Shown here one piece after another: positions 897-23,554 of a stretch of 64,000 bases of DNA. Every line of letters starts with the position of its first letter. Position 1 is the stretch's first letter. A program made the position numbers and the translations under genes. Below the pieces are notes generated by a model. It saw only the letters and a list, made by a program, of their open reading frames with translations, was not told the DNA's origin and ran no database searches. The stretch lies in IMG/VR virus record IMGVR_UViG_3300034062_005355, one strand, 5' to 3'. The stretch comes from a virus (Duplodnaviria; Caudoviricetes).

Positions 897-1075
897 ATAA
901 CTATAAAGTAATTGAAGCACAATATATTCTTAGATTGGAAAAGGAAGTTAATGATCATCTTAAAGATGGATGGTTATTATCAGGAGGTGTTAATACCACG
1001 ACAGTCGTTAAACCAACTTTTAATGGTATAGAGTCTTGGATTACGTACTCACAAGCCATTTATAAAATTAACTAA
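893..1075 (+). CDS. small protein resembling DUF1737
   Basis: LEKEVNDHLKDGWLLSGG...YSQAI pattern; ATGA overlap with the upstream gene. Confidence 0.6.
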   Translation: MNNYKVIEAQYILRLEKEVNDHLKDGWLLSGGVNTTTVVKPTFNGIESWITYSQAIYKIN

Positions 1076-5043: not shown

Positions 5044-5724
5044 ATGCCAAGAAAACAACACAAATATCATTACATTTATAAGACAACAAATATTATAAAT
5101 GGAAAATTTTACATTGGGATGCACTCAACCAGTAATTTAGAAGACGGTTATATGGGTAGTGGTGAAAGAATAACAAGAAGTTTAAAAAAATATGGTAAAG
5201 AAAATTTTAAAATTGAGATTTTAGAAATGTTACCAAATAGAGATTTATTAAAAAAAAGAGAGAAAGAAATTGTAAACCAAACATTATTAGAAGATAAATT
5301 ATGTATAAATTTAGTTTATGGTGGGGGTGGAGGTTTTATAAGTCCTGAAGGTGTTAAAAAAGGTAGAAAAACAACTGATAAAATATTACAAGAAAGATAT
5401 GGTGATAATTTTTTAAGTGTGATTTTCAAAAATTATTATAAAACGGTGACACCTGAAAAAAGAAAAATACAACTTGAAAAAATAAAACAAAGTAAGATTG
5501 ATTCTGGTTTTGATTTTGGTGGTACTTTTAGAGGAAAAACCCACAAAGATGAAACAAAAAAAATAATTGGTGAAAAAAATGCAATACATCAAAAAGGTGA
5601 AAAAAATTCACAATTTGGTACTTGTTGGATAACAAATGGAAAAGAAACTAAAAAAATTAAAAAAATTGACTTATATTTGTATCCTGAATGGGAATTAGGT
5701 AGAACTATAAAAAAGACGATATAA
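5044..5724 (+). CDS. free-standing GIY-YIG homing endonuclease
   Basis: YIYKTTNIINGKFYIGMH, GYMGSG and a NUMOD3-like GKTHKDETKKII segment. Confidence 0.9.
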   Translation: MPRKQHKYHYIYKTTNIINGKFYIGMHSTSNLEDGYMGSGERITRSLKKYGKENFKIEILEMLPNRDLLKKREKEIVNQTLLEDKLCINLVYGGGGGFISPEGVKKGRKTTDKILQERYGDNFLSVIFKNYYKTVTPEKRKIQLEKIKQSKIDSGFDFGGTFRGKTHKDETKKIIGEKNAIHQKGEKNSQFGTCWITNGKETKKIKKIDLYLYPEWELGRTIKKTI

Positions 5725-10685: not shown

Positions 10686-10798
10686 AGTCGGGTGGCGGAA
10701 TTGGTTAGACGCTAAGTGTGGGTTCGTAACCCTTGACCGTCTGGTAACAGATACACAGAGTAACACTCGTACAGGTTCGAATCCTGTCCTGACTACCA
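10686..10798 (+). ncRNA. tRNA-Leu-like repeat element, copy 6 (ends in ACCA)
   Basis: AGTCGGG/CCTGACT; branched insert with GGGTT/AACCC, TCTG/CAGA and GAGT/ACTC hairpins. Confidence 0.8.
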
Positions 10799-10987: not shown

Positions 10988-11092
10988 AGTCAGGTGGCGG
11001 AATTGGTTAGACGCTAAACCATTAGAGATAAAATGTAGATTCTCAGTAAGGTAATATACTACATTATACAGGTTCGATTCCTGTCCTGACTA
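10988..11092 (+). ncRNA. tRNA-Leu-like repeat element, copy 7 (105 nt)
   Basis: Conserved ends; unique insert. Confidence 0.8.
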
Positions 11093-11800: not shown

Positions 11801-11870
11801 AGTCAGGTAACTTAACTGGTAAAGGGGGTTGCGATAGTTTCCGTTACAGGTTCGAATCCTGTCCTGACTA
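11801..11870 (+). ncRNA. tRNA-Leu-like repeat element, copy 9 (70 nt, shortest)
   Basis: Conserved acceptor stem and T arm; altered D arm. Confidence 0.75.
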
Positions 11871-12800: not shown

Positions 12801-12890
12801 AGTCAGGTGGTTTAAAGTTGGTTCGACTCCAAGATAGGATATGGTATCGTTGCGATTGGAAATTTACAGGTTCGAATCCTGTCCTGACTA
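12801..12890 (+). ncRNA. tRNA-Leu-like repeat element, copy 11 (90 nt)
   Basis: Conserved ends; insert contains a second T-arm-like hairpin TTGG-TTCGACT-CCAA. Confidence 0.75.
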
Positions 12891-13756: not shown

Positions 13757-13868
13757 TCAGGTGGCAGAATGGTAGATGCATGATGATAAAGTAGGGTTCG
13801 GATGTACTCGGAGGAAATTGATTCAGTTAGGTGTACAACTAATACAGGTTCGAATCCTGTCCTGATTA
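13755..13868 (+). ncRNA. tRNA-Leu-like repeat element, copy 13 (114 nt)
   Basis: AGTCAGGTGGCAGAATGGTAGATGC...ACAGGTTCGAATCCTGTCCTGATTA. Confidence 0.8.
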
Positions 13869-13914
13869 CAAATCTCAGGAGTAATTAATCTGAGACTGAG
13901 TGATTCGAAACACT

Positions 13915-14024
13915 CGATTGATTATGGTGTAATGGCGCACAACACCCCCCGCTGAAGTTCGAGTCTTCAGATTAGGTACGGTAACCAGGGGAGTAAGATT
14001 AAGGTTCGAATCCTTTTTAATCGG
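13915..14024 (+). ncRNA. tRNA-like element on a different (Gln-like) scaffold with an insert in the anticodon loop
   Basis: CGATTGA/TTAATCG acceptor; GTG-TAATGGCG-CAC D arm; ACACCCC/GGGGAGT stem enclosing CTGAAG-TTCGAGT-CTTCAG; terminal AAGG-TTCGAAT-CCTT. Confidence 0.6.
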
Positions 14025-14191
14025 CAATTGGTAGTAAAATGCGTAGGTTGATAAGCGTGGAGAGACGTGACGCAAGGGTACACACTAAGGATAGGTAGTA
14101 ATACCCAACTCTCTAATGGTGTGTGAAGCTGGGCCCAAACTTATGGTCGCTAGGCGGGATTCTTGATAAAGTCAACCACTACCTTTTACAT

Positions 14192-14423: not shown

Positions 14424-14819
14424 ATGATCAGACTAAATACAAATTTAAATAATTTAAATCACAGAGAAATTAGAAGAATTGTTGATAAAACAATAAGATA
14501 TAGTGTATTTAAATTTGGAATTAACAAAAGAAAAGGATGTTGTACTGTTGTAGTTAAGAATCAAAGTAAAAACGCCGAAATTCAAAATTTTGGTGAGTAT
14601 AATCCTGATACTAATACTATTTATATCTTTAAAAACAATTGTAAGAATGTTAAAGATGTAATTGAAACAACATTACATGAATATGCCCACACATTACAAC
14701 CAATTGTAAGTAGGTATTATAAAATGTTAAAAACACATGGATATGAAAAGCATCCAATGGAAATCGAAGCAAGAAAACATGAAAAATATTGTAAAGAAGC
14801 TTGGATTTTAATAAAATAA
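14424..14819 (+). CDS. zinc metallopeptidase-like protein (HExxH)
   Basis: TLHEYAHTLQ and HPMEIEAR motifs. Start reassigned to the ATG after the promoter at 14397. Confidence 0.75.
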   Translation: MIRLNTNLNNLNHREIRRIVDKTIRYSVFKFGINKRKGCCTVVVKNQSKNAEIQNFGEYNPDTNTIYIFKNNCKNVKDVIETTLHEYAHTLQPIVSRYYKMLKTHGYEKHPMEIEARKHEKYCKEAWILIK

Positions 14820-14843
14820 TTATTAGGTTTGTACCTATTAAAT

Positions 14844-14933
14844 GGAGAGGTGGCAGAGCGGTCGAACGCGGCGGTCTTGAAAACCGTTTTAGGGGAGACT
14901 CTAACGGGGGTTCGAATCCCTCCCTCTCCGCCA
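14844..14933 (+). tRNA. tRNA-Ser(TGA), CCA encoded
   Basis: GGAGAGG/CCTCTCC; long variable arm; G73-CCA. Confidence 0.95.
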
Positions 14934-15530
14934 AGTAAAGAGAACCGTGAGTCCGCGGATGGAAACAACCATAGGACGATCAAACGTCATACTTTACTTA
15001 AGACCCCACGATTAACGAAAAGTACTTGTTCGTTATGGTGTGTGACCCTGACTTGAAGGCTTCAAGGCTATGGGGGAGGTAACACAGAGTGAAACTTGTA
15101 TAATCTTTCATGAACGAGATTAATTGATTGGGTGAAATTCCGTCAGGTACATTGGAATCTCAAATTAGAAGAGTTCCCCATTATGGATTAAGGGGGTAAG
15201 GGGCTTTAATTAGTCGTAATAGAATCCACAAGTCGTAAGAATACTGAACAATCTTACGGTACACACTCTTCTTCCGAGTGAGACTCACCACGTAACTTTG
15301 GGGGTAGGGTGAAGATGTTCTGAGGATAGCACTGAACGCTATGTTGAAAACTCTATGACAAACCGATTAGATAAGTAAACATGGACGGAGTGTGAAAGTA
15401 CAGACCCACCGTGGATGGTTACTATTGTCTAACAAATCTTAGACATATCGGTGTGGGATACTATATCGCCAAATCTAAAACTTAAAAGGTTCTCTCAAAA
15501 TGGCGTGGGGATGATTTAGAACCTTTTTTT
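14934..15530 (+). ncRNA. candidate large ornate ncRNA (~600 nt)
   Basis: ORF-free and GC-enriched with many helices; long-range pairing CCCCACG (15004)/CGTGGGG (15504); ends in a hairpin plus U tract. Confidence 0.6.
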
Positions 15531-15532
15531 AT

Positions 15533-15604
15533 TGTCACGTAACTCAGCGGTAGAGTTCTTCCCTGATACGGAAGCGGTCATAGGTTCAAATCCTATCGTG
15601 ACAA
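15533..15604 (+). tRNA. tRNA-Ile(GAT)
   Basis: TGTCACG/CGTGACA; CTTCC-CTGATAC-GGAAG. Confidence 0.85.
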
Positions 15605-15610
15605 CACAAT

Positions 15611-15685
15611 GTCTTCGTAGCTCAGTTGGTTTAGAGCACTAAACTTTTAATTTAGGGGTCATGGGTTCGAGCCCCATCGGGGACA
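15611..15685 (+). tRNA. tRNA-Lys(TTT)
   Basis: CTAAA-CTTTTAA-TTTAG within a cloverleaf. Confidence 0.92.
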
Positions 15686-15790
15686 CTACCCTATCAAATA
15701 GTTTAATCCACGGGTAAAAAGAAAACACGGGTCCGAGTACCCGATGGTCTCACCGTAATTGTGGTAATCGGTGAATTGATAAAATATTAA

Positions 15791-15954: not shown

Positions 15955-15958
15955 CAAA

Positions 15959-16092
15959 GGTTGATTAGGGAATGATTGTACTGATAGTTCGAGAGTGAAT
16001 ACTGACTAGTACAATCGGAGTTGGGAGGTATTCACCTAAGTAATGCTAATCGTAAAAACAGATGTCCACTCGACCATCTTCTGTTTTCCTTA
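15959..16092 (+). ncRNA. candidate double-pseudoknot RNA
   Basis: GATTGTAC/GTACAATC hairpin whose loop GTGAATAC pairs with GTATTCAC; 5' GGTTGA pairs with TCGACC in a 3' hairpin loop. Confidence 0.55.
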
Positions 16093-16095
16093 TTT

Positions 16096-23106: not shown

Positions 23107-23166
23107 ATATATAAATATATGGGAAACAAAAAACCCCATCACAAGGACAGGGTTTTATGTTAAATG

Positions 23167-23554
23167 TGGAGTAGCGCGGATTCGAACCGCGGTCTTCCCT
23201 ACTCAATAATAAATGACTACACGTTTAGGATAATGTTTGCTAACATTCCAAAATTCACAATTCCCTTATTTTTAAAGTGGTTCGGTTTACTGAGAACTAA
23301 TCCTCCACTTGTTTCTTTTAGGATAGAAACCACACCCTATAGAGATTTATGTTCCAAGGTTAATATCTCCCCGACCTGAATATAGTTTTGCTTACGCTAC
23401 TTCTACAAGCTCATCTTGTTTTACAAGACCTAATAGAGCCATTTTGTTTAACACGTTGCCGTATAATTGTTATTACCATAGATTTAAGTGATAGGAAACA
23501 TCTCACTACGTGCCACCGATTACAGACATATGAAATCAATTGCCTTTCTACCCC
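23167..23554 (-). ncRNA. ssrA: tmRNA
   Basis: 5' GGGGTAG..GGCAATTGA; 3' CGCGG-TTCGAAT-CCGCG-CTACTCC-A; G3:U70 pair; internal tag ORF at 23460-23392. Confidence 0.93.

Follow-up and report, generated by a model that had tools for sequence, protein, structure and literature searches.

The window analyzed here, a stretch of 64,000 nucleotides (nt) from IMG/VR virus record IMGVR_UViG_3300034062_005355 (Duplodnaviria; Caudoviricetes), encompasses at positions 14934-15532 of the plus strand what sequence comparison identifies as the gene for a large, multi-pseudoknotted non-coding RNA. This RNA is a member of a family carried by uncultured phages, jumbo phages of 269-321 kilobases (kb) included, that is absent from Rfam 15 and from the literature we found and likely represents a further class beside GOLLD and ROOL. 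As to function, we favor, with a moderate degree of confidence, the view that this RNA of a new family is released by the enzymes that mature tRNAs and acts in trans as a particle similar to those of GOLLD and ROOL.

The gene is tightly bracketed by tRNA-Ser(UGA) (14844-14933, plus strand; CCA encoded) and tRNA-Ile(GAU) (15533-15605, plus strand), both called by ARAGORN and matched by the Rfam tRNA model with 53.8 and 68.5 bits, respectively. The last base of tRNA-Ser abuts the first base of the RNA and tRNA-Ile begins 6 nt past its last paired base, leaving gaps of 0 nt on the 5' side and 6 nt on the 3' side. Apart from one open reading frame (ORF) that overlaps the tRNA, no ORF of 60 or more amino acids was found on either strand of 14934-15532, and the RNA region forms a GC island, with a GC content of 0.39-0.48 versus 0.23-0.31 in the neighboring coding DNA. 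All 25 tRNA genes that ARAGORN identifies in the window lie on the plus strand; the window also carries a tmRNA as well as terminase and portal genes and therefore comes from a phage. The earlier note on this DNA, made without database searches, had proposed an ornate non-coding RNA of about 600 nt inside the tRNA cluster, a proposal that is borne out by the GC island and by the covariation and homologs described below.

The fold was derived from an alignment of 105 non-redundant representatives of the family (alignment A2). RNAalifold, applied to raw MAFFT alignments, gave noisy long-range pairs and was dropped; the structure comes from a covariation-driven helix search over all column pairs followed by manual curation. 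The curated structure consists of 13 nested helices and 5 pseudoknots (18 helices in all). Among its 9857 cells, 97.0% pair, compared with 83.0% when partners are shuffled and 36-47% when partners are slid by 1-3 columns. Both sides of a pair change in 74 of the 95 pairs, in 1295 cells versus 318 expected, and on each of five measures the observed value was reached by none of the 500 shuffles; the covarying homologs on which the earlier note had proposed to check the structure thus exist. Pseudoknots PK2 to PK5 are 95-100% paired, with compensatory changes in every pair of PK3, PK4 and PK5 and in 4 of the 5 pairs of PK2. In addition, 82 columns of the alignment are invariant and a further 116 are at least 90% conserved, and many of the invariant positions are formally unpaired, namely those in GACCCCAC, GGCUAUGGGGGA, CGUAACU, CUGAGG and GGAUGGUUACUA.

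The homologs were reached from the neighboring 421-amino acid (aa) protein, which led to related contigs, a first alignment, conserved words used as patterns and, finally, nhmmer searches. The 421-aa protein identified 25 related viral contigs, among which the RNA is present in only four loci (three distinct contigs), at differing positions of the tRNA array; the neighboring 141-aa ORF, employed as another handle for related loci, yielded no confirmed relatives. The conserved-word patterns matched 23, 53 and then 69 viral stretches in successive scans and at least 119 stretches in the metagenome scan, and nhmmer detected at least 195 copies in viral and metagenome contigs, at least 162 of them full length. 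These comprise at least 126 distinct copies at 99% identity, at least 105 at 95% and at least 66 clusters at 90%, with 58-91% identity to the window copy; among the matches listed, the core is 389-546 nt long (median 465). Each contig contains a single copy, and this holds for four complete genomes (269-321 kb) and for the window. A blastn search against 50,697 GenBank phage records returned no match. A pattern scan of 185,579 prokaryote species, each represented by one genome, did not find the family beyond a single match in a contig of a Saccharibacteria metagenome-assembled genome (L098), which shows no further similarity and no nhmmer match and was dismissed as a chance hit. In the loci of 117 non-redundant copies, all 817 tRNA genes share the strand of the RNA; a same-strand tRNA begins no more than 10 nt past the RNA 3' end in 48 of 103 copies, and 19 of 115 copies have a tRNA directly adjoining their 5' end.

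At curated thresholds, Rfam 15 recognizes only tRNAs and the tmRNA in the whole window. In a cmscan of positions 14800-15650 and nine homologous loci with all 4227 Rfam 15 families, permissive filters and an E-value limit of 10, only tRNAs and noise were retrieved; specifically, the models of GOLLD, ROOL, OLE, HEARO, raiA, RNase P, introns and ribozymes gave no match in any of these 10 members. The earlier note had offered two options, a member of the GOLLD or ROOL class or a new large RNA, and had suggested the GOLLD, ROOL and OLE models as the arbiter. The first option finds no match at all in this search, and the second is the one that stands, given the covarying homologs and the lack of a match in Rfam 15.

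For GOLLD, the search has a positive control. The RF02032 model, which represents the conserved 3' region and has a gathering score of 150 bits, detects true GOLLD genes, with scores of 300-328 bits, in 10 of the 17 large RNA-carrying contigs, on the same strand and 6-29 kb away from the RNA, so that the two are separate genes. By comparison, none of the 8 related contigs that lack the RNA contains GOLLD (Fisher p=0.008, uncorrected for relatedness). When six GOLLD loci, each with flanks of 1.5 kb, were searched with the family profile (nhmmer, --max option), nothing significant emerged; the best match had an E-value of 6.7 and covered 15 positions. The ROOL model (RF03087; 574 positions, gathering score 99.1 bits) has no match in the 17 carrier contigs, in a search that lacks a positive control. 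It could be argued that the RNA belongs to GOLLD or ROOL but has diverged, either as a whole or as a detached domain, beyond the reach of the Rfam models, considering the common niche in phage tRNA islands, the 599-nt length of the window copy, which is near that of ROOL, and the co-occurrence with GOLLD. However, the 10 members examined have no match even at an E-value of 10, ROOL is unmatched in the carriers (with the reservation just made), full-length GOLLD genes reside in the same genomes at a distance of 6-29 kb, and the family profile does not do better than E=6.7 in GOLLD loci; we regard this explanation as scarcely credible. In the six GOLLD loci (L218-L223), the 1.5-kb flanks on both sides of the GOLLD gene contain no tRNA according to ARAGORN, whereas the new RNA usually has tRNAs as its direct neighbors.

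GOLLD and ROOL are encoded in phages and prophages, often beside tRNA islands (PMC12286853), and the new RNA occurs in the same setting. Like GOLLD, it is a large, ornate, pseudoknotted and ORF-free RNA of lake phages that is located in or near tRNA islands on the tRNA strand and combines a conserved part with variable parts; unlike GOLLD, it is only about half the size (a core of 389-546 nt versus more than 800 nt), with other helices and other invariant motifs and without a sequence or model match. With ROOL, the new RNA shares the phage or prophage location near tRNA islands, multiple pseudoknots and the lack of a known protein partner, and the 599-nt window copy is close in length to the 574-position ROOL model. 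ROOL, however, was first found in rumen metagenomes (hence 'rumen-originating') and is widespread among the phages and prophages of diverse bacteria (PMC12286853), in contrast to the new RNA, which comes from uncultured phages with Bacteroidota-type promoters and was not found in the representative genomes of the 185,579 species. More generally, the new RNA displays the features by which large ornate phage RNAs are recognized, that is, a length above 350 nt, the absence of an ORF, numerous covarying helices and pseudoknots, and extensive conservation of unpaired nucleotides. A literature search turned up no paper describing the family, and a large IMG/VR survey of structured viral RNAs reported only motifs of 29-151 nt (PMC10690425).

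Another point of comparison is bacteriophage T4. Its stable RNA species 1 and 2 (rnaC and rnaD) are simple RNAs of about 140 nt encoded in the T4 tRNA cluster that are co-transcribed with the tRNAs and released by tRNA-processing enzymes. By this description, they resemble the new RNA in being non-tRNA RNAs inside a phage tRNA gene cluster, but the new RNA is three to four times their size and contains five pseudoknots.

The conservation of unpaired segments raises the alternative that the RNA is a large ribozyme, with the invariant unpaired segments forming an active site that processes, ligates or cleaves RNAs of the tRNA array or of the host. Catalysis would be compatible with the extent of conservation in the core of about 390 nt (82 columns invariant and 116 nearly so, many of them outside helices), with the density of pseudoknots and with the strict location among same-strand tRNA genes. 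Against this stand the absence of any match to RNase P, group I and group II intron or ribozyme models at the permissive E-value and the fact that GOLLD, ROOL and OLE are similarly conserved without known catalysis, so we consider a ribozyme unlikely. RNase P deserves separate mention. It would be diagnosed by a covariance match together with CR-I (GAGGAAAGUCC) and CR-V (ACAGAA..GGCUUA) forming P4. A possible P4, GUCCGCGG/CCGUGGAU, accompanied by ACAGA and GGGUGAAA motifs, was considered and rejected because there is no model match; furthermore, the P4-like 5' strand sits in the optional 5' domain that is missing from 83 of 115 copies (72%), and the ACAGA-like motif at 15400 is not conserved (GUAGAA and GUAUAG in homologs). 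A group I or group II intron was likewise rejected, given the lack of a model match and the completeness of both flanking tRNAs.

The RNA consists of a conserved core of about 390 nt, which bears the 13 helices and 5 pseudoknots, and several optional parts (all on the plus strand). The first of these is a 65-nt 5' domain (14934-14998) with a highly conserved interior, which is present in 32 of 115 copies, invariably 1-6 nt ahead of the core. It is closed by the stem AGUAAAG/CUUUACU (14934-14940/14992-14998; 98.8% paired, compensatory changes in 4 of 7 pairs) and contains a hairpin CCGUG/CGCGG, which is 98.3% paired and changes only from G-C to G-U, a weak hairpin AUGG/CCAU, which is 84.4% paired and has no compensatory change, and a candidate third inner hairpin ACG/CGU. 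Core domain 1 (14999-15087) comprises the invariant 5' segment GACCCCAC, the invariant GGCUAUGGGGGA, hairpin Pa (15013-15018/15030-15035), helix P2 (15040-15043/15082-15085; only one double change, from G-C to A-U), hairpin Pb (15047-15051/15062-15067) and pseudoknot PK1, in which the Pb loop (15058-15061) pairs with 15078-15081; at the center of PK1, 78 sequences have a G-C pair, 20 a U-A pair and 2 an A-U pair. Both strands of PK1 (A2 columns 65-68/87-90) read GGCU in most sequences and are self-complementary via G-U pairs, so that this contact could in principle join two molecules instead of closing within one. A GGAGG within GGCUAUGGGGGAGG, two bases of which are used in PK1, brings to mind a Shine-Dalgarno-like decoy, an idea for which we make no claim. 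For GACCCCAC, a possible partner is UGGGGG at 15071-15076, both sides of which are invariant, so that covariation is uninformative; GGG at 15307-15309 is an unlikely partner, as it varies (UGG, CAG, AGG, GAA) while the CCCC remains constant.

Between P2 and the next hairpin, Pc, the window copy has an insertion of about 80 nt (optional module a, 15088-15168), which is missing from 64 of the 105 sequences, where a linker of 4-7 nt takes its place, and otherwise occurs in at least three unrelated versions, the window containing version 1. Core domain 2 (15175-15228) consists of hairpin Pc (15175-15179/15192-15196), the loop of which forms PK2 (UGGAU, 15184-15188, with AUCCA, 15224-15228; 99.8% paired, 4 of 5 pairs compensatory, AAUGU/ACAUU in a divergent subgroup), and hairpin Pe (15202-15205/15212-15215) with an invariant UUAA in its loop. 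Core domain 3 (15232-15320) includes hairpin Pf (15232-15240/15252-15260), pseudoknot PK3 between the GAAC of the Pf loop (15246-15249) and GUUC (15317-15320; 99.8% paired, 4 of 4 compensatory), hairpin Pg (15264-15268/15276-15280) and hairpin Ph (15283-15290/15299-15305) with the near-invariant loop CGUAACUU. A helix between ACGAUU (15008-15013) and AGUCGU (15231-15236) was rejected, with a single covarying pair and an overlap with the strongly supported Pf.

Helix Pi (15329-15332/15390-15393; 4 of 4 compensatory), which spans the region 15329-15393, is capped by optional module b (15333-15389). In 29 of the 105 sequences this module is missing and Pi is only a short hairpin; the others carry one of at least four versions of it. 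The 3' domain (15405-15532), of which several versions likewise exist, contains helix Pj (15405-15411/15449-15456) enclosing hairpin Pk (15427-15432/15439-15444), the invariant GGAUGGUUACUA, PK4 between the Pk loop (15434-15438) and 15513-15517 (5 of 5 compensatory), PK5 between CGCC (15467-15470) and GGCG (15502-15505; 4 of 4 compensatory), the terminal helix Pt (15485-15491/15520-15526), which encloses hairpin Pl (15494-15497/15506-15509; 4 of 4 compensatory), and a U-rich tail (15527-15532). The versions of the modules combine in nearly all ways, producing a mosaic in which hairpin modules are gained, lost and swapped on a core that is kept. The window copy has all three optional parts and is therefore, at 599 nt, among the longest.

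With the family structure at hand, the helices that the earlier note had read by eye can be sorted. All eight of its motif pairs are indeed present at the places given, and four of the eight are confirmed as helices by covariation: TAACGAA/TTCGTTA corresponds to Pa and is supported in the alignment of 105 sequences, CGTAAGA/TCTTACG to Pf (7 of 9 pairs compensatory), TGTCTAA/TTAGACA to Pk (6 of 6), and AGTAAAG/CTTTACT to the outer stem of the 5' domain. The other four, GAAGAGT/ACTCTTC, TCACC/GGTGA, ACCGAT/ATCGGT and CCCCACG/CGTGGGG, are unsupported, being jointly 65.8% paired compared with 66.0% in shuffled controls and showing no excess covariation. The last of these had been put forward as a pairing over a 500-nt range, with its 3' strand in a terminator-like loop; the CCCCAC strand is invariant, whereas its supposed partner varies, covaries with local partners and is used locally, with the GGCG engaged in PK5 and the UGGG closing Pl. 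The terminator-like hairpin itself proved to be a real covarying helix, Pt, with all 7 pairs compensatory, but its 28-nt loop is filled by a hairpin and two pseudoknots and departs from the simple terminator rule, which asks for a short-looped, GC-rich hairpin with a U run right behind it. Because of this structured loop and the abutting tRNA, a role as a simple terminator is uncertain. A run of 3-5 T within the first 6 nt past Pt is found in 100 of 104 copies.

At the other end of the transcription unit, 12 nt 5' of tRNA-Ser, the window contains a candidate Bacteroidota-type sigma-A -7 box, TAGGTTTG (14824-14831, plus strand), which, as read from the sequence, is the likely promoter of a unit comprising tRNA-Ser, the large RNA and tRNA-Ile. 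In Flavobacterium, the sigma-A box has the sequence TAnnTTTG and spans -12 to -5 (PMC9723704). Among the homologs, this box is present upstream of 31 of 115 copies, and in 29 of these its end falls exactly 9-11 nt before the RNA start, where the background would give 0.06 boxes in 60 nt; from this spacing and the Flavobacterium position, transcription of these copies is predicted to start about 5 nt before AAGACCCC. The motif points to a Bacteroidota host. In the window, rightward transcription that includes the tRNA genes and is probably driven by the TAGGTTTG box would produce a single transcript of tRNA-Ser, the RNA and tRNA-Ile; processing of the tRNA-Ser 3' end would then cut between 14933 and 14934 to generate the RNA 5' end, and RNase P cleavage between 15532 and 15533, ahead of tRNA-Ile, would generate the RNA 3' end. 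Other members of the family would use a Bacteroidota-type promoter of their own and start about 5 nt before the core.

The same arrangement could be accounted for by a cis-acting structured spacer of the tRNA operon that controls termination, read-through or the order in which the flanking tRNAs are processed, a notion that agrees with the placement between two tRNAs at distances of 0 and 6 nt and with a 3' end consisting of a hairpin followed by a U-rich tail. Yet about 390 conserved nt with five pseudoknots far exceed the needs of such control, the promoter box at a fixed distance of 9-11 nt in 29 of 115 copies makes those copies separate transcription units, and the array position as well as the species of the flanking tRNAs differ between related phages. 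We therefore judge a cis-acting spacer to be quite improbable.

Patchiness among close relatives, varied positions in the array and mosaic modules are also what would be expected if the RNA came from a selfish or mobile element, or from a decaying remnant of one such as an intron or a homing cassette, spreading in tRNA arrays without serving the phage, and an ORF that could belong to a homing system (5044-5724) is present in the same tRNA cluster. Such an origin appears very improbable to us: no conserved protein gene accompanies the RNA, no gene is interrupted, both neighboring tRNAs being intact, each genome has a single copy, the intron models have no match, and the structure has been under strong purifying selection across at least 66 clusters at 90% identity.

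Returning to the particle reading, our best guess, made by analogy, is that the RNA forms a stable particle which, like GOLLD or ROOL, acts in trans. After release from the tRNA transcript, the compact folded particle would act in trans during infection, as GOLLD and ROOL do, and would most likely self-associate or bind some part of the host's translation or tRNA apparatus. The same genomic niche, the single copy per genome and the co-occurrence with GOLLD (10/17 versus 0/8) all speak for this proposal. GOLLD, ROOL and OLE have recently been shown to be RNA-only homo-oligomers, and of these GOLLD forms a D7 14-mer nanocage and ROOL a D4 octamer nanocage (PMC12286853). In the new family, the loop of Pa contains a palindrome of at least 4 nt in 77 of the 105 sequences (46 expected) and of at least 6 nt in 35 (11 expected). 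The palindromes occupy fixed columns and read GAUAUC, AGUACU, AAGUACUU, ACGU or AUAU, and columns 24 and 27 switch between A-U (32 sequences), G-U (26) and G-C (24). These two columns cannot pair within one molecule because only two bases separate them, and covariation of this kind was used by Kretsch et al. as evidence for symmetric intermolecular kissing loops (PMC12286853). The switching palindrome thus hints at a symmetric loop-loop contact between copies of the RNA.

A more specific scenario, which we put forward tentatively as possible rather than probable, is that the family is a third self-assembling class of giant phage RNA, with flat, pseudoknot-braced protomers of about 390 nt that are joined through the Pa loops into a closed homo-oligomer and cooperate with GOLLD in jumbo phages of Bacteroidota. 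Under this scenario, other loops may join protomers as well, the assembly might hold or shield, for example, phage tRNAs or a host translation factor, and the swappable modules would tune assembly or cargo.

Several observations weigh against the interpretation of the RNA as a tRNA-released particle and against its more specific version. The window copy taken singly does not fold better than chance (z = -0.43; 32 of 100 shuffles fold as well or better), so the single sequence proves nothing. The invariant unpaired nucleotides would fit a catalytic or ligand-binding core equally well. The palindrome signal is modest, with the outer pair forming in only 40% of the sequences, and may reflect shared ancestry. 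The 3' hairpin with its U tail could end transcription, in which case there would be no read-through into the next tRNA. The promoter motif is the sole basis for the Bacteroidota host. Finally, the contig that is closest to the window by the 421-aa protein (L001; 94% identical, 182 kb) lacks the RNA, and the existence of such close relatives implies that the RNA is dispensable or replaceable.

The surroundings of the gene contain additional elements of interest. The ORF at 5044-5724 (plus strand) in the tRNA cluster resembles a homing endonuclease (phrog_314, E=2.9e-35) and could be responsible for the gains, losses and reshuffling of array members observed among related phages. The tmRNA (23164-23554, minus strand), which ARAGORN missed, is matched over the full RF00023 model with 54.8 bits. 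Four matches to the Rfam tRNA model with 31-42 bits that ARAGORN did not call (10686-10795, 10988-11092, 11801-11870 and 12801-12890, plus strand), some of them 90-110 nt long, resemble non-canonical tRNA-shaped RNAs with inserts. A second GC island (13800-14190, plus strand; GC content 0.44-0.485), which contains only short ORFs and is located just 5' of tRNA-His, may be another structured RNA, and two GC-rich spacers on the same strand, of about 105 nt between tRNA-Lys and tRNA-Cys (15687-15790) and of about 140 nt between tRNA-Trp and tRNA-Tyr (15956-16095), are too long for plain spacers. In the tRNA array of a related phage (L032), about 470 nt downstream of the large RNA, there is a near-threshold match to the Rfam family freshwater-1 (RF02979) at 996-1056 (plus strand), with 61.9 bits versus a gathering score of 72.

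To our knowledge, large ornate RNAs of unassigned function fall into very few classes in bacteria and phages. If our reading is correct, the RNA described here adds a further class, one that is abundant (at least 126 distinct sequences), that has a structure very well supported by covariation, and that resides in the niche of GOLLD and ROOL, often sharing a genome with GOLLD. It would then provide an independent case for asking what giant RNAs do for the phage. With about 390-460 nt, the RNA would be a compact target for cryo-electron microscopy, its natural module-swap variants would serve as ready-made mutants, and the Bacteroidota promoter box at a fixed distance would narrow the search for a culturable host.

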